Origin: Octopus vulgaris
Lineage: Eukaryota
Assembly: GCA_951406725.2 (NCBI GenBank)
Contig: OX597814.1
Coordinates: 203,174,001 to 203,238,000 of the forward strand
Direction: 5' to 3'
DNA: 64,000 nucleotides
Shown here: positions 1,185 through 62,429 of the stretch, piece by piece
Numbering within the stretch: the first letter of the stretch is position 1
How the letters are laid out: every line of letters begins with the position of its first letter
Program-made: the position numbers and the translations under genes
Notes under the pieces: model-generated
Told to the model about the DNA's origin: nothing
Database searches by the model: none
The model's input: the letters and a program-made list of their open reading frames with translations, nothing else

Positions 1185-1389
1185 TTTCGTTTTTGGATTT
1201 GGTTTGCAAGATTCTTTATATGAGTTCGTGTGTTGAAGCATATTCTATTGAGTCAAAACTATTGAAAAGGCTGCAAGACGCAAAGAAAATTTTAGGAAAA
1301 TAAAAATAAGAAAAAAGTGGAAATTTTACCAGTGAGTGTGTTACACAATAAGGCACAAAAAGAAAATGACTTTCCCCAGACACAATAGA
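1185..1389. mobile_element. Short internally inverted element (U3:A8 hammerhead family) with perfect 12-bp TSD
   Basis: ATCTTTAATGTA at 1173-1184 and 1390-1401; 1185-1250 is the reverse complement of 19542-19607; 1251-1391 matches 19410-19550. Confidence 0.8.
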
Positions 1390-3402: not shown

Positions 3403-3969
3403 GTGAAAGATAGTGGTCACAAACCGAAGAAAGGAACGTCCAAAGTGACCGTAATGGTCAGTAATATGATGTGTGAAACGCCACTGTTTAACCAGGAGTT
3501 CTATTTTTTCTACCTCTCCCATAGTCCAGTTCCAGCTGACCACCCTCTTGGTTATATTGGATATGAGAAAAATGGATTTGATTCGATATCTGTCGATATG
3601 GAGAAATCTTCTGTGAAGGAGTTCTTTGTTTTTGACGAACCGTTTGGCAAGAAAGTATTGTTAAAGAGCAAGAGGGAGATTTCGTTCAATGAAGTCCTTA
3701 CGTCTCTGTCAGCGTTTCTAGTCACCCATAACCTGTTGCGTTTCTCCATCTTGATTTGCTCTTCAACTTCAGTACATTGCGCACGTAGCAGCATCTTTTT
3801 ATCTTTGGAGCAGGTCAACAAGTTTGGGGACCAGACAAAAACAGTTAATATTTCCGAGAACAATTCACCAAATGCTGTAGTTATTAATACAGGGCATTTC
3901 ATGGGGAAACCAAATAGCATATACAGATTCGTTGAAAAATATCCAGATTTCAACATTCACCCAATAACG
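3403..3969 (+). CDS. Cadherin exon 1 in window (VKDSGHKP...FNIHPIT)
   Basis: Pyrimidine tract + AG at 3401-3402; GTAAGT at 3970; 567 nt; divergent EC repeats; joins GVITTNRSFDRE. Confidence 0.88.
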
Positions 3970-4467
3970 GTAAGTACATTTTGTTTAAATTTACCAATCT
4001 AGTTACATAGCATCTCAGTAAAAAAAAAAAAACTCTTCGTTATCTATCAACAAAGCATCTTTATCTTTGTTATCTATTCGCAAAACACTTTTATCATCAT
4101 TATATGTCAACAAATTCACATCTGTTTTCGTTATCTGTCTATAAAACACATCTTTGTGACTATGTTTGTATGTTAACTGGCTGATTATTTGTGTTAATAA
4201 GTTTCATTTTTGTAAGAAGAATCATAACAGTGATTATGAAATGTTTTACTGGATTTTAACTTTATAAACAAATTTAAATGGATAAATGATCAGGTTTGGT
4301 TTTGTTGAGACAAACCTGTTATATGGAAATAAGATGTGTATGATTAGAACCAAAGGATATATAGAAACAAAAGTTCCAATTTCATTGGTTTAAGAGGCAA
4401 CAAATAGGAATACTAAAACAACAAATTAAATTGAAGTTTTATCTATATATATATATATATATATATA

Positions 4468-8631: not shown

Positions 8632-8895
8632 AATTGCAGTGTGGAAGGTGTTTATAAGACATTTAAAAACACACAAAAACCATTAGATTCACTTCAACAT
8701 TGAAATTTAATTTGTTAAAATACTTTTGTCACTTTGAAACCGTAACCTGTTCACTGACAAAATTCTGTGCTGCACAGAATTTTGTCAGTGAACAGGTCAC
8801 GGTTTCAAAGTGATGAAAGTATTTAAATGTTGAAGTGAATCTAATGGCTTTTGTGTGTTTTTAAATGGCTTATAAACACCTTCCACGCTGCAATT
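8632..8895. repeat. Foldback palindrome with 1-nt spacer (centre 8771), flanked by (TA)n
   Basis: Arms 8632-8770 and 8772-8895; ~15-nt deletion in right arm. Confidence 0.9.
8781..8824 (+). ncRNA. Variant hammerhead-like motif with G3:C8 core (decayed)
   Basis: UUUGUCA-GUGAACA-G-GUCAC gguuucaaa GUGAU-GAAA-GUAUUU; the 3' strand of stem I is deleted here but present in the inverted copy at 8711-8762(-). Confidence 0.45.
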
Positions 8896-17816: not shown

Positions 17817-18968
17817 GCACATCAACTGGAAGTCCAAGATATTGATGCCGGAGAAAATGGTACTGTAACTCTAAGTCTCAATGGAGCAACTCAGTTTCGT
17901 CTTCGCAAAGTCGAAAACTCTAGCTATGTTGTTTATGTAAAAGCCAATTGGTCCCTTGACCGTGAATGGCGCAGTAATTACAATGTGAGCATCACTGCTC
18001 GTGATGGGGGTGACCCACCAAGGTCATCTGTCATATATTTATTCATTAAAGTTTTAGATGTTAATGATCACAGTCCACAGTTTCAGTATACTTCATATAA
18101 TATGACAGCCACTGAAAACTCCCCCCTTGGTAAAGTTATTGGCTATGTTCATGCTGATGATGAAGACTCCGAGGTCAATGGAGAAATTGAATATTCTATT
18201 GTGAGTGGATCAATGGAGATGTTTGAAATTGGTGAGAAAAATGGCAGTATATATATCAGCCAACCTAAACTGGATCGAGAGAAGAAAGACATTTATCACA
18301 TCACTGTGCGTGCACAAGATAAAGGTTTTCCTCGAAAGCAGGCACATACAGTTGTGAACGTATATGTTGAAGATGTCAATGATAATGCACCAGAGTTTTC
18401 GCAACAGGCCTACACAGTTACTGTTCCTGAAAACACACCAGTTGGAGACATTATTTTCCAGGTGGATGCACGTGACAGGGATTTAGGAGCTGGCGGTCAG
18501 GTCTCTTTCTTTTTGGAGCCTCGTTCCAAATTTTTCTACATAGACAAGAACAATGGTAGTATCTACTTGAACAAATCTCTTGACTATGAAACGACAAGGA
18601 AACATTTTACTTTCAACATTCTTTCTCACGATCATGGCACCCCGAGCATCAGTTCAATTGCTCCCATTGAAATAAAAGTCACTGATGTAAATGATGAAGT
18701 TCCTGAATTCTCTCAGCCGTTGTATGTTAGCCAGATCACCAAAACTTCGCCAATAGGAAAAGCCATTACAGTCGTCCAAGCAAAAGATACAGATTCAGAG
18801 ATCATTTATTACTTGACACCGTCATCTTCTGAGTTCACCATTGACAAATCAGGTGTCATTGTCCAAACTGAGAACATTGATAAAACAATATTCTCACCAG
18901 GTACGCTGTATAAGGAATTTAATGTCGTGGCTACTGACTCAATCCACACCGCCAATACATCTGTTCAG
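17817..18968 (+). CDS. Cadherin exon 4 (AHQLEVQDIDAGENG...ANTSVQ), nearly 4 EC repeats
   Basis: ttgccAG / GTAGGT; 1152 nt; LDRE, LDYE, DVNDHSP, DVNDNAP, DVNDEVP motifs. Confidence 0.96.
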
Positions 18969-19078
18969 GTAGGTCATTATTTAACCCTTTTTGTTACCAC
19001 ATCTCCATTGAAATACACTGCCTCTGTTTCAATTAATTTTTGAAATAATGAAGAATTTAGTAAAATAACTTTGTCGTT

Positions 19079-19605
19079 CTGTTGCGTCTGGGGAGAGTCA
19101 TTTTCTTTTTGTGCCTTGTAATGTAAAACACTCACCGGTAAAATTTCCACTTAAATCTTATTTTTATTTTCCTAAAATTTTCGTTGCGTCTTACAACCTT
19201 TTCAATAGTCTTGTTGGCTATGTTCATGCTTTCCAAGAGTCAAGATTATTGAAAAGGTTGTAAGATGCAATGAAAATTTTAGGAAAATAAAAATAAGAAA
19301 ATAAGTGGAAATTTTACCAGTGAGTGTGTTACATTATAAGGCACAAAAAATTTTCATTGCGTTAGCAACATTTTCAATAGTCTTATTGGCTATGCTCATG
19401 CTTTTCAAGAGTCAAGACTATTGTAAAGGTTGCAAGATGCAACGAAAATTTTAGGAAAAGAAAAACAAGATTTAAGTGGAAATTTTACCGGTGAGTATGT
19501 TACATTATAAGGCACAAAAAGAGAATGACTCTCCCCAGACACAACAGAATATGCTTCAACACCCAAACTCATATAAAGAATCTTGCAAACCAAATCCACA
19601 AACGA
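19079..19605. mobile_element. Double foldback element (U3:A8 hammerhead family) inserted in a TTAA-type MITE
   Basis: Arms alternate -,+,-,+; near-perfect 12-bp TSD AACTTTGTCRTT at 19067-19078 and 19606-19617. Confidence 0.8.
19172..19208 (-). ncRNA. Variant hammerhead-like motif with U3:A8 core
   Basis: Minus strand: CUA-UUGAAAA-G-GUUGU aagac GCAAC-GAAA-AUUU-UAG; further copies at ~19246-19282(+), ~19350-19380(-), ~19418-19454(+), ~1259-1295(+). Confidence 0.5.
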
Positions 19606-20130
19606 AACTTTGTCATTATTAAGCTGGTATTTAGAACATAGCACGAAATTTTGATAAGAAGTTTTAATTTAGACCACCTTAACCATTTTGTTACCATATT
19701 TCCACTGAAATACTCTGCCTATTTCAGTTTTGAATATAACGAAGAATTAAGTAATATAACTACCATTGTTAAGTTACAGTTTCGGACATAAGTTAGCACA
19801 AAATTTGATGGAAGGTTTTAATTTAAATCACTTTAAAATGCAAAGTTTGTATCATGGAACCAAGGGCAGTTCCAGGTTGGCCAGTATCAAAAAAGTTCAT
19901 TCTTTGATACCCTACTTTTGTTAAAATACACTGCCTTTGTTTCAATTAAATTTATTAAATTAACTTAATCATTATTAAGCTGGTGTTTGAAGCACAAATT
20001 ACCATAGAATTGCCTAACGTGTCACTCAATAGGATTGAACCCAAAACCATGTGGTTGGGAAGCAAACTTCTCAACCACACAAATCTCTTGATATTTTTGT
20101 GTCTTCTAACTTTTATTTTTAATTCCGCAG

Positions 20131-20340: not shown

Positions 20341-21359
20341 GTTAGTATTTACCGTCATTAGTATTTGGTATATGCGTGTGTGTGTGTGTGTGCATGTATG
20401 TATATGGGCTTAACTTTCAAGTGCTGGTAAAACATAGTTACTTTACCAGTTGCTGCTACATTAAAACAATGCTACTAAGATTATCTAATATTAACTCCAT
20501 TGAATTTTAAATTCCATCCGAGCGTGATCGTCGCCAGAACAGCTATCTGGCCTCTGTGCCGGTGGCACATAAAAGACACCATTCGAGTGTGATCGTTACC
20601 AGCATGCCGGTGGCATGTGTAAAAGATTCAAGCGCGGTCATTGCCAGTACCGTCTGACTGGCCCCGTGCCAGTGGCACGTAAAAAGCACCCTCTACACTC
20701 TCGGAGTGGTTGGCGTTAGGAAGGGCATCCAGCTGTAGAAACTCTGCCAGATCAAGACTGGAGCCTGATGCAGCCATCTGGTTGCCAGTCCTCAGTCAAA
20801 TTGTCCAACCCATGCTAGCATGGAAAGCAGACGTTAAATGATGATGATGATGATGATGATCTTTTCATATTGACAGACATGAAGCTATTTCTGCAGTTTC
20901 ACATTAATCAGATTTTGTAAAGCAAATATAAATAAGTAAGAGTAATAATAATAATCCTTTCTACTAAAGGCACAAGGCCTGAAATTTGGGAGAGGGGGGC
21001 CAGTCGATTAGATTGACCCCAGTACACAACTGGTACTTAATTTATTGATCCTGAGGAAATGCTGCTAAACATTTTACCCGCCATGCTAACGATTCTGCCA
21101 GCTCACCACCTTAGTAACAGTAATAATAATGGCATATCTACACATGTGTACCCACCACCAGCTTTGTTTTTTATTGTTTTACTTGTTTCAATTATTTGAC
21201 TGCGACCATGCTGGAGCACCGCCTTTTGTCGAGCAAATCGATCCCAGGACTTATTCTTTGTAAGCCTAGTACTTATTCTATCGGTCTCTTTTGCCGAACT
21301 GCTAAGTGATGGGGGCGTAAACACACACCATCGGTTGTCAAACGATGTTGGGGAGACAA

Positions 21360-21430
<71 letters not shown>

Positions 21431-21528
21431 CACACACAAATACATATATACGACAGGCTTCTTTCAGTTTCCGTCTACCAAAGCCTTCTGAGTAGATTTG
21501 GTAGATGAAAACTGAAAGAATCCTGTCA

Positions 21529-21580
<52 letters not shown>

Positions 21581-22798
21581 TGTATTTTTGTGTCTGTGTT
21601 TGTCCCCCACCATCGCTTGACAACCGATGTTGGTGTGTTTACGTCCCCAAAACTTAGCGGTTGGGCAGAAGAGACAAATAGAAAAAAGTATTAGGCTTAC
21701 AAAAAATAAGTCCCGGGATAGATTTGTTCGACTAAAGGCAGTGCTCCAGCATGGCTGCAGTTAAATGACTGAAACCAGTACAAGAATAAGAGAATATTAT
21801 GATTATACAAACATGGAACACCCACACACAGTACTTGAAGTTTCCCAGCAAGCCATGGGTATGAAGTTATCTAATTTTCGATTAGTATTCACTTCACAAA
21901 CCATCATCCCTCATTTGTATTAGATATATTTCTCTATTCCAAGGGACATTGGAGCCTACTTATTTTGTTGTTATATATATATCTATGGTTAATCATTTTT
22001 GTGCGTGTGTACGTGTGTGTAAAATAATAATTTATGATACTTAACAATAATTCAGATATGCTAACTAGGTTAATATTTTGAATTTTTCACTATTTTGCTT
22101 AGTCTCTCGATATATCTATATTGTGTGTATAAACTGACAAATGATATCTTTACACAGACAGATTTTCTTATGTTTTTAATTCTAATTTTCCTTGTGTTTA
22201 CTTTACCAATTATTGCCTTCTACTCTAATACAATAATCAATCTTTGAATTGTACAGCTACAGTCCTTTATATTCTTAAAGAATGAAAATTCTATTTTCTC
22301 CAGAAATTATCTTTACAATTTTTCTTCAGGCTGTATAAGTCTTGATTTGATCATTTCTGTAAAAATAATCGGCTACACCTTTATGTTTAGCCCCACTTGT
22401 CTGTTGCCTGGAACCATTTCAAAAACTACAGACGTAGTTGAGATCTTACAGTCGATAGTCTAAACTTAGTGTGGTATAACTGCAATCTCTCTCTTGCTAG
22501 TATTCCTCTCATTTCTTAAATGACTATTTTGAAATATATTTTTTATGTTGTTGTTGTAGATTTTTCTATTATTATTATTATTAAGGCAGCAAGCTGGCAG
22601 CATTGTTACTGTGCCAGACAAGATGCTTAGTGACATTTCTTCCAGTTCTTCATGTTCTGAGTTCAAATTCTACTAAGGTCAACTTTGCCGTTTATCCTTT
22701 CAGGGTTGATAAAATAAATACCAATTGAACATTGAAGTTGGAGTAATTGACATACTACTCCCTTGAAATTGCTGGCCTTATGCCTTTAGTAGAAAGGC

Positions 22799-29849: not shown

Positions 29850-30353
29850 CTTGTCCTTCAGTCTCTTCTGCAGAGAAGAACCGTTTCTTTAATTCACCAG
29901 AAAGTTTATTTTCACAGTCTGGCTAAAAATATGTTTGTTAATTATATGCACAAAAATATAATTACAATTTATAGATATAAATATATTTTTTAATATTTTA
30001 GTTAAATAGAGTATACTGCCTAAAAATGTATTGATATGCAAATAAGCAGAACCTATGGCACTTGTTTGTAATATTTTATGTAAGACACTTTTGATAAGTT
30101 AATTATGGCCAGTAAAACTAGTGAAGCTTATTCTTCTATTTCTCCTGCAGTGAGAGTGTGTGAAAGAGAGAGAGTAAAGGCTCTCTCTTTCTCATTTTCT
30201 CACTGCAGGAGAGAGAGAATATGCACATTATATAAATATAGAATATAATGCCCACACACATACACACACACTTCATACACACAGACACATATACCTACAT
30301 GAGAAAAAAATTGATATGTATGACCATCATTTCTTTGTGACTTTATTATTTAA

Positions 30354-30574
30354 CTCTTTCGTTACCAACTTGGTTGAAACTGGCTCTGGCTCTGTAGGAG
30401 AAATGTCCTGTTTTCATAAGTTTTCAATAAAAATCTTCCTCTAAACCTTAGTCACAATTTATGTTCCTAACACTAGCTTAATGATAACTAAGTTATTTTA
30501 CTAAATTCTTTGTTACATTTAAAGTAATTGAAAGAAACACAGAGCATCTTGACAGAAATACAGTAATGAAAGGG
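30354..30574. mobile_element. piggyBac-like MITE
   Basis: TTAA|CTCTTTCGTTAC...GTAATGAAAGGG|TTAA; related inverted copies at ~18985-19675 and ~19683-19895. Confidence 0.7.
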
Positions 30575-37395: not shown

Positions 37396-38066
37396 GTAAG
37401 ATTTTTTTTTTTGTTTTTTTTTTGTTACTTAAATTTTCACATGGGAACAGACACAATAAAACCAACAGATTTATATTGAATTAAGGTTCATGATTAACTG
37501 ACCAATGGAAAGAAGGGGTCAGCAATTTGTTTTCATAATGGTTCACTTTCAATGTTTTACTCTTTCCCATAACCCGTGTAATATTTATATCATATCTTAG
37601 CAGTAACTCTGTCTTGAACCCTACAAGTAATCGAGCTGGTGTCCCAGTTTCCATGGCGTATGACTGAGATCACAAAAGTGTTCCTCCACCACCACCAAAT
37701 CTGAACAGGATGCTAGTTCATTGCTGGGTTACTCACCTGCAGCTAAGTGGACAGGAGCAACATAAAATGAAGTGTTTTGCTCCAGTACACTATGCCTTAT
37801 CCAGTTCGGGAATCAAAACATCTTCACATCATATCTTACATAAAAAAATATCTTTGCATATCTACCATCTTCTATTTCCAAGAGAACCTCTCAGATTTAT
37901 CTGTGAACTGTGGCCCACCTGTTATCAACCTCTTGATAACAGGTGGGCTGCAGATCATGGGAGTTATAGAAATAATTGAGGGCTGGATTACTCCCCCTTA
38001 TTTTCATTAGTTATGTCCCTTTAAGTGTTTCTGTTTTTTTGTTTATATATATATATATATATAATA

Positions 38067-41222: not shown

Positions 41223-41300
41223 GATGACTATGGTATCTAAGTTAAGGCACCAGAATTTAGTATGGTATTATCCATACAATTTCAAAAATAAGGTGATTAA

Positions 41301-41701
41301 AATCAAAATAAGCAACAAGGATATCCAGAGGTAATGCAGTACGATTATGTCATGCAACTCCATTTATTTGAACAAAGCAATCATTACATCAATTTAAAAT
41401 GCAGAGCAATCTTCAGCTGCACAAAGACATAGAATTTAATTAAAGTAGAACAGATGGACACATTAGTATAATTATACGTAAAATCTCCAAGAAAATTATA
41501 CTTAAAATCTCTTCTTGGAGATTTTAGGTATAATTATACTAATGTGTCCGTCTGTTCTAATTTAATTAAATTCTATGTCTTTGTGCAGCTGAAGATAGCT
41601 CTGCATTTTAAATTGATGTAATGATTGCTTTGTTCAATTAAATGGAGTTGCATGAAATCATCGTACTGCATTACCTCTGGATATCCTTGTTGCTTATTTT
41701 G

Positions 41702-41704
<3 letters not shown>
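41301..41704. repeat. Foldback palindrome, ~193-bp arms, 18-nt spacer (second copy at 42733-43136)
   Basis: Arms 41301-41493 and 41512-41704; located between (TA)n tracts. Confidence 0.92.
41584..41670 (+). ncRNA. Duplicate copy of the long-stem-II hammerhead
   Basis: Same as 43016-43102 except GAAAU instead of GAAAC (U-G wobble in stem III). Confidence 0.68.
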
Positions 41705-41736
<32 letters not shown>

Positions 41737-42655: not shown

Positions 42656-43015
42656 GATGACTATGGTATCTAAGTTAAGGCACCAGAATTTAGTATGGTA
42701 TTATCCATACAATTTCAAAGTAAGGTGATTAAAATCAAAATAAGCAACAAGGATATCCAGAGGTAATGCAGTACGATTATGTCATGCAACTCTATTTATT
42801 TGAACAAAGCAATCATTACATCAATTTAAAATGCAGAGCAATCTTCAGCTGCACAAAGACATAGAATTTAATTAAAGTAGAACAGATGGACACATTAGTA
42901 TAATTATACGTAAAATCTCCAAGAAAATTATACTTAAAATCTCTTCTTGGAGATTTTAGGTATAATTATACTAATGTGTCCGTCTGTTCTAATTTAATTA
43001 AATTCTATGTCTTTG

Positions 43016-43102
43016 TGCAGCTGAAGATAGCTCTGCATTTTAAATTGATGTAATGATTGCTTTGTTCAATTAAATGGAGTTGCATGAAACCATCGTACTG
43101 CA
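43016..43102 (+). ncRNA. Type I hammerhead with long (~58 nt) stem II, in right arm of a foldback element
   Basis: UGCAG-CUGAAGA-[hairpin 43028-43085]-GAAA-C CAUC GUA-CUGCA. Confidence 0.72.
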
Positions 43103-43133
43103 TTACCTCTGGATATCCTTGTTGCTTATTTTG

Positions 43134-43170
<37 letters not shown>

Positions 43171-57348: not shown

Positions 57349-58901
57349 TTAAAGACTTATCTGTATATTTCTTACTTTTTAAGTCAATTTTCTTATTTTC
57401 TTAAAATATTGTTGTTCTTTTTTTTTTTTTTTTGCCTTTGTGCCATAGTTCATCATCTTTGTGATATTTCAGTATAGATATGACTATTTAAAAAATACTA
57501 ATATTTCACTAAGTGTATCTTGCTTTTTAGAAAAGATACACTATATCTTTGCAAGTGATGAGGGGTGTTTAAGACTGTTGGCATCAAGGCTATTTTCCCA
57601 TAAAATATTACCTCTAAAATTCCCAGCATAAAACAACATTGAACCTGAAACTATGTGGTTGGGAACCAAGCTTCACAACCACTCAACCATGCCTGTGGCT
57701 ATATTATTATTATTGAGAGAGATGCCAGTAAGTACTCCAAGTGATGCTGGGGTACAAATATACAAAGTTCAATATACCCATCATGACTACCCATCTGATA
57801 AGGATTCACCAGGCACATGCATCTCAACCATATGTGTATGACATGGTGACTTCATATCAAATTAAGCAACACATGACCTTTCAGATGGGGCCCAGTTATA
57901 ATTTTCTTCAGTTTGAGTAGCCCATCTTGCTCAAAAGGTCCCTGAATAAGGGTTGTTTAAGGATGATGAATGGAACACCAATGTTTCCAGGGGTGAATTA
58001 TTCGAACCCCAAAGAATTCCTCTCAACACATGGCCATGATGCTCCTCTATTTCTGCTTGTGATCAGAGATGCACATATCATCAGACGCTAAGGGATATGC
58101 TCAACTGATTAAGGTCAAGCAACTGACAAACAAATCTGTGGTATTCATCAGCATCATCATCATCATTTAATGTGTGCTTTCCATGCTGGCATGGGTTGGA
58201 AGAGTTGACTAAGGACTGACAAGCCAGGAGGCTACGCCAGGCTCCAATGTGATCTATTGAGCAGAATATTTACTGTAGCCCATCTTTTTATACCAAGACA
58301 ATGTACATGATAACACTTCCAATCAGTTAAGATCAGACGCCATGAGAGTCACTGCCTGGTACTGCATCAGGGCATTTATTATTATTGTTAAGGTTGTGGC
58401 ACATATAAAGCACCATTTGAGTGTGGCCGTTGCCAGTACCGCCTGACTGGCCCTCGTGCCGGTGACACATAAAAGAACCCACTACACTCTCGGAGTGGTT
58501 GGCGTTAGGAAGGGCATTCAGCTGTAGAAACTTTGCCAGATCAGATTGCAGCCTGGTGCAGCTATCTGGTTCGCCAGTCAAATCGTCCAACCCATGCTAG
58601 CATGGAAAGTGGACGTTAAACGATGATGATGATGTTGTGAGCTGACAGAATTATTAGCAAATCAAGCAAAATGCTTAATATCATTTTGTCTGTCTTTATG
58701 TTCTGAGTTCAAATACAGCTGAGGTCAACTTTCGCTTTTATCCATTCTGGGTCAATAAAATAAATACCTGTGGAACACTGAGGATGATGATGTCAACTTA
58801 AATATTCCCCTAAAATTGATAGCCTTGTGCCAAAATTTGAAACCATTATTATGTAATATTATTGGTTACTAGCTGTCAGCAATATATTTTTGTTATTTCA
58901 G

Positions 58902-59122
58902 ATTATTTCAGCATTTCATCTTCTGGTTGGATCAGTGTGAAGAATAAAATAGACAGAGACACTTTGAATATTTCTCAAGCATCGCTGACTGTTTATGCTG
59001 TGGATAATGGACTTCCACCCAAAACCGGCTCTACACTGCTTCTTGTAAATATTAGTGATATTAATGACAATATTCCAGATTTTGTAGGATATAACATGAC
59101 ATACGTCATTGAAATACCTCAA
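58902..59122 (+). CDS. Cadherin exon 15 (YFSISSSGW...IDRD...DINDNIP...EIPQ)
   Basis: tttcAG / GTAAGT; 221 nt, phase 1/0. Confidence 0.93.
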
Positions 59123-60747
59123 GTAAGTTTGAGTTTTTCTTTCGATAACTCTTTATTGTGCAAACATCAGACCACAAAATATTTACTGCTTCTAGTACAG
59201 AGACAAGGATAGATTCTTTTAGTGGTGTTGGAGTGGAGATGTTGATTATATCAACTTTAATACTTTATTGGTGGGTTCAATTCCTGTGCAGGGCCACACA
59301 TTGTGCCCTTGAGCAATGTACTTCATTTCACAATCCTCCAGTCAATACGGCTAAAAATGAGCACAAGTCAACTGCTGAGTCAACCCCCCCTCCACCTCAC
59401 ACACACACACACACACATATCCTGGATATTCTGCTGGGTCAAAGGAAAGAAGGAGGCAAGAAGGTGTCTGTATCTACTTCTGACTAATTAGGCATCTAAA
59501 ACAGTTAATGAAAGCTTAGTACATGCTACCTTAGCGAAGTTGCAAGTGGCAGCTATGGACAACTTGTTTTTTTTTTTACTTTGTAGATGCATTATTTTTA
59601 TTGACTTCCAGAAGAAAAACAAACAAAATTGGCAACAGCAGGGTTTGAACTCAGAACATAAAGAGCCAGGACAAATATACATATGCCAAAAGCATTTTGT
59701 TGGACATTCCAACAATTCTGCCATATTTTCCTTTATCCCATTCTTTAATGGAAACTAATTAACTCTAATGAAAAACACTTCCTTTTTCATTAATTAATAT
59801 GGCATTTGTTTCAGGGTTGCAAGCTAGCAGAATCGTTAGCACACCGGGCGAATTACTTAGCAGCATTTCGCCTGCTGTTTCATTCTGAGTTCAAATTCCA
59901 CTGAGGTCAACTTTGCCTTTCATTCTTTCGGAGTCGATTAAATAAGTACCAGTTACGCACTGGGGGTCGATGTAATCGACTTAATTTTTTTGTCTGTCCT
60001 TCTTTGCATTAAAGAAATCAATATGGCATTTGTTTCTGTTGTTTTTTTTATAATATAACAAAATGGGTTTTTTTTGCACATAAAATTATAATGGACAGTT
60101 TTAACTCAACCCTTTAGCTTTTAAACCACTCATATACCAAGGCCAAATATTCAATGTGTTTTATGTTCAAACTGGCCAGATTCAGCCTCTCACACCTACA
60201 AATAAACCATCACATCAAAACCACAAGATAATGCAGGATTAATTGAAAACAATAAGTATTATATTTAAAAGAGTAATCTGAATGCTTAAAGGGTAAAATA
60301 TAACTATTTAAAACTGTTTTGTATGAAAGAACCAGAAGCAGTCTGGGGTAAGATGGTACCAAAACAGGTTTGCTCTTAATAGGAAAATACTCAAAGACAG
60401 CCAGCTGGCAAAATCATTAACACACTGGGTGAAATGCTTAGCAGCATTTTATTCATCTTTATGTTCTGGGTTCAAATTCTGCCGAGGTCAGCTTTGTCAT
60501 TCATCCTTACTGGGTCAATAAAATAAGCACCGGTTGAACACTGGGATCAATGTAATCGACTTACCCCTCCCCCAAAATTGCTGGCCTTGTGCCAAAATTT
60601 GAAACCAATATGAAAATACTCTGGAACCTACAATACGTGGTCAGCTACAATTTTAAATGTTCTCTTACAATATTTTTATTTTGCTTTTCTTTTGAAGCAA
60701 TATCAATGATTTTAGAAAGCCCTGATTGTACGTTTTATATTTTACAG

Positions 60748-60972
60748 AATACACAAGGAAACAAAGAATGGTGGCTTCCAGAAGCCTTAGATCCTGATGA
60801 AGGTCAGAATGCTAAGGTGAAATACAGTGTACAGTTTGTACCCAACGAAGATCCAGAGATGACAGCATTGTTTGATGAGGTATTCTCCGTCAGCAAAGAC
60901 TTACGCAAACTTATCATCAAAAAACCTTTACCGACAAGCAGTTGGAGACCAGAAAATTTCAGTGTTGCACTT
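60748..60972 (+). CDS. Cadherin exon 16 (NTQGNKEWWLPEALDPDEGQN...FSVAL)
   Basis: ttacAG / GTAAGT; 225 nt; DPDEGQN motif. Confidence 0.9.
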
Positions 60973-62429
60973 GTAAGTTCTTCTAAACCTAACCCTAACC
61001 ATGTCTACATTTCTTGATTTATTTCAAGGAAAGGCAAGATTCCACTTTCCTAGTTATTTTATTCAAATTAAGAATCTTAAAAGGAAAACTAGCTCAGGCT
61101 AATGTAAGTTCTAAAATATCTTAATGATAGCCTCCACTTCAGTAAAGTATATACAAATCAAAGTCCAAAAATAGCAACTAAATCACTCTTAGATCATGCT
61201 CCACTGTCTGAAAATAATTTAGTATATACATTGGACTATGTAGTGCTTGACCGTTGTCATCTGCCTGCTGGATCGTGCATGGCCTGAGACTAAATAACTG
61301 TAGGTACAGGTATGGTTGTGTGGTAAGAAGCTTGCTTCCCAACCACATGGTTCCAGGTTCAGTCCCACAGCATGGCACCTTGGAAAAGTGTCTTTTACTA
61401 TAGCCCTGAGCTAACCAAAACCTTCTGACTGGATTTGGTAGACAGAATCTGAAAGAAGCCTGTCATGTGTGTGTATGTGTTTGTCCCACACCATCACTTG
61501 ACGACCAGTGTTGGTTTGTTTACGTCCCCATAACTTGAAAGTTCAGCAAAAAGAAGCTGACAGAAGCTTTAATAAAAATAAGTACTATGGAGTGGTGCAG
61601 GTAGTGATTTGGTTGACTAAAAGTTCTTCAAGGTGGGGCCTCAGCATGGCCGCAGTCCAATGACTGAAAAATGTAAAAGAGAGAGAATATCAATAGCAGT
61701 GGATAATGTTTGCGTATTGTGTCGAAAATAATTCTGAACATTTTTAAAGTAAAATAAAACTGTTTCAAATTAAAATGGTAAGCTGGGGACAGTTTCTACC
61801 TTTCATTACTCGGGGCAGGGCGGGTGGGGAGTGTAATTGACTAACCCCCACCCCTCAAAATTACTGGCCTTGTATCTGAATCAGAAGACATTTAAAGGCA
61901 GTAAGCTTCATTAGCATGGAGGTACATGGCCTAGTGGTTAGAGCAGTGGGATCGCGGGTTCGAATCTCAGACCGGGTGATGTGTGTGTTTGTGAGCAAAA
62001 CACCTCTAAGCTCCATGCGGCTCCGACAGGAGGTAATGGTGAACCTCTGCTGACTTTTTCACCACACCTTTCTCTCACTCTTTCCTCCTGCATCTAGCAG
62101 CTCACCTGCAATGGACCAGCGTCCTGTCCAGGTGGAGAACCTATATGCCAATGAAACCAGGAAACCAGCCCTTATGAGCCAGACATGGCTCAAGAAGGAA
62201 CAAACAACAACAAACTTCATTAGCACATCAAACAAAATACTCAGTAGCATTTCTTCTGGCTTCTTTTTATGTTCTGAGTTCAAATCCTGCCAAGGTCAAC
62301 ATAGCCTTTCATCTTTTGAGGGCCAATAAAAATGTATCACTTGAGCACTGGGATCAATGTTATCAACTAACACCCTTAACCTTAAATAGCTGACCGTGGG
62401 CCAAAATTTGAAATACTCATTATTGCTAC

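Follow-up and report, generated by a model that had tools for sequence, protein, structure and literature searches.

The insertions of Penelope-like elements leave a footprint in which two start points are fixed, one arm is inverted and a tail stands on one side only (PMC8557442, PMC3846280), and the tail is described as 30–40 nt long (PMC8557442). The purified enzyme of a Penelope-like element cuts and extends both strands in vitro, at two sites in an AC-rich stretch, and in the same account the joining of the two cDNAs is described as not yet validated (PMC11167929). The features described for minimal hammerhead motifs include U3-A8 and an extra base before helix II (PMC4209133). Host capture and palindromes at the tip are already known in Penelope elements (PMC3846280); no report of a Penelope filler traced to a neighbouring donor was found in the open-licence literature.

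Templated host sequence at a junction is a kind of event already known from L1, from R2 and from polymerase-theta repair. The insertions made by polymerase theta are 3–30 bp long, are direct-repeat or hairpin-primed, often arise in several rounds and use overlaps of less than 3 bp; their donors typically lie within 30 bp, and distal templates account for less than 0.1% of repair (PMC7165422). The donor of templated insertions at L1 typically lies within 15 bp of the site (10.1101/2024.08.27.596794), and one case of a co-inserted local pre-mRNA has been described (PMC10191854). At R2 insertions, snap-back after full-length cDNA synthesis and the use of extra RNA templates have been described (PMC11371274).

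The locus analysed here lies in a 64,000-nt stretch of Octopus vulgaris DNA (contig OX597814.1, positions 203,174,001 to 203,238,000), hereafter named the window, and all coordinates are counted from its first letter. One 531-bp insertion (19077–19607), flanked by a 7–9-bp target duplication, begins 108 nt into the intron that follows a cadherin exon (17817–18968). It contains, in this order, an inverted arm (L1), loop 1, a partial direct arm (R1), a short inverted arm (L2), loop 2, a direct arm (R2) and a tail. These parts, the host features around them and a second copy of the same family are as follows.

17817..18968, plus strand: cadherin-repeat coding exon of 1152 nt, with an open frame, AG/GT borders and a Pfam Cadherin match
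18136..18155, plus strand: donor 20-mer, within the VIGYVHA codons, 921 nt upstream of the insertion site
18985..19076, plus strand: left part of a host repeat that is older and of high copy number, interrupted by the element; an uninterrupted paralogue lies at about 30460–30510
19068..19076, plus strand: left copy of the target-site duplication, AACTTTGTC, the same on both flanks
19077..19213, minus strand: arm L1, family body in inverted orientation from the body/tail border onwards, 93% complementary to 19413–19549
19172..19208, minus strand: predicted minimal hammerhead motif, with U3-A8 core, an extra base before helix II and a 3-bp helix I
19174..19519, plus strand: tandem duplication of 173 bp (19174–19346 and 19347–19519), with 19 differences and an A-run overlap at the break
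19211..19230, plus strand: loop 1, exon-matching, with a non-family core at 19214–19228
19229..19235, plus strand: putative snap-back tract 1, with one mismatch to the arm
19236..19350, plus strand: arm R1, direct family body, cut short
19246..19282, plus strand: second predicted hammerhead motif, within R1, found with the same descriptor
19347..19384, minus strand: arm L2, short inverted arm, a product of the duplication
19383..19402, plus strand: loop 2, exon-matching, with a non-family core at 19385–19400
19401..19407, plus strand: putative snap-back tract 2, identical to 19198–19204 and matching the 5' part of the family itself in reverse complement
19408..19550, plus strand: arm R2, direct family body, from the common 5' end of the family
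19551..19607, plus strand: tail of about 57 nt, AC-rich, at one end only; the family depth stops at 19607
19606..19614, plus strand: right copy of the target-site duplication, its first two letters being the family's last two as well
1185..1389, minus strand: second family copy, inverted body and tail overlapping by 1 nt, no filler between them

The limits of the insertion were also seen in the contigs of sequencing runs. Joints from 19066 to 19606 had nine shared letters in three of the four runs and five in the fourth, and loose ends behind 19075 ran on into the right flank in all four, with the uninterrupted host repeat present in many contigs. Joints that skip the insertion were rejected as dating evidence, as they may stem from paralogues of the host repeat. 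Inside the insertion, the stretch 19174–19346 is repeated at 19347–19519, which indicates that the second loop was gained by the duplication of a simpler insertion consisting of arm, loop, arm and tail. Private letters are distributed among the arms as a mosaic (the letters at 19154-5/19471-2 are shared by L1 and R2, the one at 19261 by L1 and R1), which points either to later exchange between the arms or to more than one template RNA.

One important question is the identity of the element. An inverted arm lies head-to-head with a direct arm, target duplications stand on the flanks, and a tail of about 57 nt is present on one side only, between two fixed start sites. Both copies in the window have an inverted arm that starts at the body/tail border and an end that coincides with the tail end; in the copy at 1185–1389, which is flanked by a 12-bp target duplication (1173–1184 and 1390–1401), the tail is inverted. 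The inverted arm, the tail on one side and the two fixed start sites together make a Penelope-like footprint. A hammerhead descriptor, built on the features given in PMC4209133 after the motif had been seen, matched twice in the whole window, both times in this element (in L1 and R1) and with predicted cleavage; neither R2 nor the copy at 1185 has the motif intact, and no Rfam hammerhead match was obtained for the element. Hammerhead cleavage was rejected as the origin of the common 5' end at 19408, since the cut is predicted about 44 nt further in. Among the open frames of the window, none encoding a telomerase-like reverse transcriptase with a GIY-YIG endonuclease adjoins either copy. A LINE or SINE with a 5' inversion made by classical twin priming was also rejected, given the absence of poly(A) and the overlap of the arms over 137 nt. 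The element is read as a putative pLTR remnant of a Penelope-like element, a membership that rests on the layout and on the hammerhead motif.

It resembles endonuclease-bearing Penelope-like elements in having an inverted arm, a direct arm and a one-sided tail (PMC3846280, PMC8557442, PMC4209133, PMC11167929), and it also has in common with Penelope-like elements, as they are described, target duplications of 7–12 bp, a palindrome at the inverted junction and a minimal hammerhead of the U3-A8 type. It differs from those described in that the insertion lacks a coding frame and has a tail of about 57 nt rather than 30–40 nt. In rotifer Pen1 host DNA was captured as spacers of 0.9–1.5 kb, whereas the piece captured here is tiny and its donor has been identified next door.

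The exon that holds the donor gave a Pfam Cadherin match over three stretches (E 8.7e-54), and its homologues are cadherins at only 30–40% identity, without a gene name. Since the donor, at residue 106 of the translated stretch, sits inside a full-length Pfam match (93–184), the exon is the older holder of the 20-mer and was not derived from the element. The exon makes up 91% of the 1.26 kb upstream, and the exonic position of the donor is therefore expected from geometry and uninformative. Three open frames on the plus strand (58841–59212, 3403–4002 and 60556–61017) resemble exons of the same large cadherin gene, the first being the only one of the three with a Pfam Cadherin match. The older high-copy repeat is clustered in the cadherin intron (18985–19076, 19606–19860, 19895–20010 and 30400–30560), and the element landed in one of its copies.

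The match between loops and exon was real. An earlier note on this DNA had reported that the two hairpin spacers (19211–19230 and 19383–19402) each differ by one letter from 18136–18155, and both coordinates and letters were as given there; the segment is also missing, as that note had it, from the family copy at 1185–1389. At three mismatches or fewer, a search of the two strands together (128 kb) found the 20-mer exactly three times, without mismatch at 18136 and with a single one at 19211 and at 19383, whereas 100 shuffles of this search gave a mean of 0.01 matches and never reached three. Just one of the 1133 17-mers of the exon recurs within the window, at 19214. Among 20,000 simulated loops of 22 nt, exact matches within 2 kb reached at most 14 letters, against 17 for loop 1.

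Two points in that account had to be narrowed. The two spacers both match the exon, but as they lie inside the 173-bp tandem duplication they are not independent and count as one event. The 20-nt exon match stands, but the part foreign to the family is only 15–16 nt long: the first two letters of the loop match (TT) are also those of the arm, and the last two (CT) are also those of the snap-back copy. The G mismatch of loop 1 at 19213 is the family letter, and family contigs extend to this position; because the mismatch is the family letter, it may result from correction between the arms. Loop 2 has the A of the exon where the family has G, which gives it the longer match.

Another question is whether the 20-mer simply belongs to the family. 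Contigs of six of the 24 sequencing runs listed (X1, X3, X4, X5, X7 and X11) were compared over loop 2. In X1, X7, X4 and X5 the depth at 19390–19394 was 23.4, 0, 11.4 and 0, respectively, and at 19425–19429 it was 189,958, 544,793, 575,287 and 71,993. For loop 1 the summed contig depth was 7–171 in four runs, against 10^4 to 10^6 over the arms, and all the loop 1 contigs differ from the loop. The 20-mer is thus not the family consensus, with the loops at or below the depth of a single contig and the arms 10^4-fold higher. The inverted arm of the family extends to 19213 and its direct arm usually begins at 19408; over 19400–19414 the depth climbs from tens to more than 100,000, and loose ends and joints pile up at 19408–19410. 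In the metagenome and viral contigs the 5' motif of the family had no matches in either set.

The junctions themselves were confirmed in part. One contig of X1 (116 nt, depth 23.4) is identical over 19325–19437, which covers the junction of the duplication, loop 2 and both of its borders; run X1 may be the source sample, and loop 2 is the only loop with such independent support. Loop 2 was seen in X1 only, one of the six runs, with no such contig in X3 (about 80% covered), X7 (76%), X4, X5 (98%) or X11. In X4 the contig lying over loop 2 has 11 gaps and was discarded as coming from another locus. For loop 1, located in the longest stem, there was no matching contig in X1, X3, X4 or X11 among the matches listed. 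Contigs drop variants, and a missing contig is no evidence on the age or polymorphism of the loops.

The junction at loop 2 can be followed letter by letter. The arm ends in TT, the first two letters of the donor, and 16 non-family letters follow; CT, the last two letters of the donor, then opens a 7-nt tract identical to 19198–19204, after which the family start is found. The non-family filler is fully accounted for by the exon, with an overlap of 2 nt on either side. On the bottom strand the full-length cDNA comes first, followed by the snap-back, the copy of the exon and the join to the other arm. The 7-nt tract is what a tail-primed cDNA would make on reaching the 5' end of its RNA and folding back, and the starting fold modelled for this step is weak (-0.3 kcal/mol). 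Loose ends before 19401 read as inverted arm in four of the four runs (10, 11, 6 and 8 contigs), three ending in GTCTTGCAAC and one in GTCTTATAAC. About 1–2% of the family depth passes through the snap-back tract ahead of the common 5' end, which indicates that perfect snap-back foldbacks are a regular product of the family.

The 20-mer is likely a templated-insertion scar at the joint, as read from the letters of the junction, and local capture by one route or another is in our opinion highly probable. The template must have been the sense strand upstream of the cut, either the resected top DNA strand or a nascent transcript. The earlier note had placed a capture of host sequence at the inversion junction during insertion, naming DNA or nascent pre-mRNA as the source and RT template jumping or polymerase-theta-like repair as the route, with no choice made between them. 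The overlaps and the snap-back tract support the capture; as to its timing, we infer that it took place during insertion and not at a later break of the hairpin.

In the reading that we prefer, to which we give slightly less than an even chance, the scar arose as the two halves were joined, with the upstream DNA strand as its template. The enzyme of the element would cut both strands 7–9 bp apart and prime cDNAs from the tail end and from the body/tail border. The tail-primed cDNA would reach the 5' end of the RNA, fold back and copy 7 nt of itself. Its new 3' end would then pair by 2 nt with the sense strand of the exon 0.92 kb upstream, the template probably being the top strand, bared when the left end was resected. 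A polymerase-theta-like enzyme (a candidate) would copy 18 nt. The released end would next pair over 2 nt with the second cDNA at its tip, and the break would thereby be sealed. A tandem duplication would subsequently double the loop, and point changes would accumulate.

A right-hand 3' end that copies the resected left end predicts both the direct orientation of the filler and an upstream donor, which argues for DNA as the template, and the short tract, the 2-nt overlaps and the adjoining hairpin-primed tract match polymerase-theta insertions; the window also has another, probably templated filler, the loop at 41494–41511, which repeats its own arm tip. On the other hand the donor, 921 nt off, is far beyond the usual range, overlaps of two letters are common by chance (about 1 in 14 each, as estimated from the local base composition), loop 1 had no matching contig in four runs among the matches listed, and a single insertion followed by simple duplication leaves the mosaic arms unexplained unless the arms exchanged sequence later. 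Furthermore, a nascent transcript predicts the same strand and the same side. If RNA was the template, the reverse transcriptase would have used a 2-nt overlap after snap-back to jump to the pre-mRNA of the cadherin gene, or to a short fragment of it, and copied 18 nt, the product being joined to the other arm. The strand of the donor (sense) and its side (upstream) are those at which nascent RNA is expected; a tethered transcript could easily span 921 nt, a distance that is long for polymerase theta, and the co-inserted pre-mRNA at L1 and the extra RNA templates at R2 count in the same direction. A captured tract of this size is, however, very short for a processive reverse transcriptase; the filler crosses no splice junction, the exonic donor is the default in surroundings that are nearly all exon, and the cadherin gene would have to be transcribed in the germ line. 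We consider this route possible although rather unlikely. A further alternative concerns the timing. Palindromes are known to be revised by breaks at their centre, and a near-perfect palindrome such as this one could have broken at its tip, by cleavage of a cruciform or hairpin, and been patched by end-joining with a local 20-mer. The element is a strong inverted repeat, and its internal duplication and mosaic arms bear witness to later instability; nevertheless the intact snap-back tract and the exact 5' end of the family beside the filler argue for a fresh cDNA end and not a resected break, and such later repair appears improbable.

The resemblance to the exon might instead be fortuitous, an untemplated or distantly templated filler that happened to match and was picked from a huge family in a large scan. 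The family is indeed huge, its depth being 10^4 to 10^5 times that of a single contig. For one filler, the chance of a match within 2 kb is 1.5e-6 if 17 letters count and 2.9e-8 if 20 letters do, and the exon's A in loop 2 extends the match. Over an assumed 10^3 fillers the expected chance matches are 1.5e-3 to 2.9e-5, and at the upper bound of 10^5, with fillers in all copies, they are 0.15 (17 letters, genome-wide) to 0.003. Coincidence is on this basis quite improbable. That the 20-mer belongs to the family or to a subfamily born at this place, or that the loops are an artefact of assembly, would agree with the lack of a matching contig for loop 1 and with the finding of loop 2 in one of six runs, perhaps the source sample. 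The loops are nonetheless no more than one contig deep, with arms 10^4-fold higher, and the X1 contig is identical across loop 2, and we regard this as very improbable. Finally, the loop could be a selected RNA element regulating the host exon, such as an editing guide or a small RNA, and the pre-mRNA would carry a long hairpin 108 nt beyond the splice donor. But the loop is a direct copy, not complementary, and cannot pair with the exon in the pre-mRNA, and both loops have drifted; this is hardly credible. All Rfam microRNA matches were far below gathering (best 87.8 bits vs 245), and the scar shows no sign of function.

When the junction is set beside described systems, the filler of 16 nt, the overlaps of 2+2 nt and the 7-nt hairpin tract agree with polymerase-theta repair, and the donor at 921 nt does not agree with its range of about 30 bp, the snap-back tract alone being local. 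As in the templated insertions of that enzyme (TINS; Carvajal-Garcia et al. 2020, PMC7165422), a short insert identical to flanking DNA is found with overlaps of about 2 nt and hairpin-primed tracts, made in several rounds; unlike in those insertions, the donor is 921 nt away instead of typically less than 30 bp, the ends joined are cDNA tips, and the enzyme is here only a candidate. L1 is similar in that host sequence near the target is copied in during integration, beside twin-priming inversions (10.1101/2024.08.27.596794, PMC10191854). The present element differs from what is described for L1 in being of Penelope type, in lacking poly(A), in having its donor well beyond 15 bp and in carrying a piece of 16–20 nt at a head-to-head tip. 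At R2 5' junctions the 3' end of a full-length cDNA, before it is joined, is extended on the cDNA's own sequence or on target DNA close by (PMC11371274), as proposed here, but there is one cDNA at R2 whereas two cDNA arms are bridged at this locus.

This junction keeps an ordered trace of full-length cDNA, snap-back, local capture and a 2-nt join. The family has very many copies and its fillers can be surveyed genome-wide, and the single event is mainly a seed for such a test. A bolder proposal, which we find doubtful, is that the Penelope-type reverse transcriptase bridges its own cDNA arms by hopping, after snap-back, onto host nascent RNA or a 20-nt fragment. If this were true and general, the tips of tens of thousands of foldback copies would be a fossil record of the Penelope joining step, and they would also record which genes the germ line was transcribing at the time of each insertion.

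Other foldbacks are present in the window. One at 41298–41707, found again at 42730–43139, has 196-nt arms followed by a TA run, and both examples lie within a 1.4-kb duplication. Its 18-nt loop (41494–41511) repeats the tip of its own arm (41470–41487) in direct orientation, with 17 of 18 letters identical; it is probably a second templated filler, and fillers of such size in the window appear to be templated. A further foldback (8632–8895) has a hairpin tip without filler and then a TA run. Four types of head-to-head junction were counted in the window, two of them with fillers of at least 15 nt, and for both a donor was found. The inverted repeats at 21171–21789, 30134–30219 and 37904–37957 were set aside, as they are not head-to-head arms with filler. 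In the folding of the element itself a strong inverted repeat was obtained (-258 kcal/mol as RNA). According to this model the insertion would give a very long double-stranded RNA hairpin in the cadherin pre-mRNA, a possible editing substrate.
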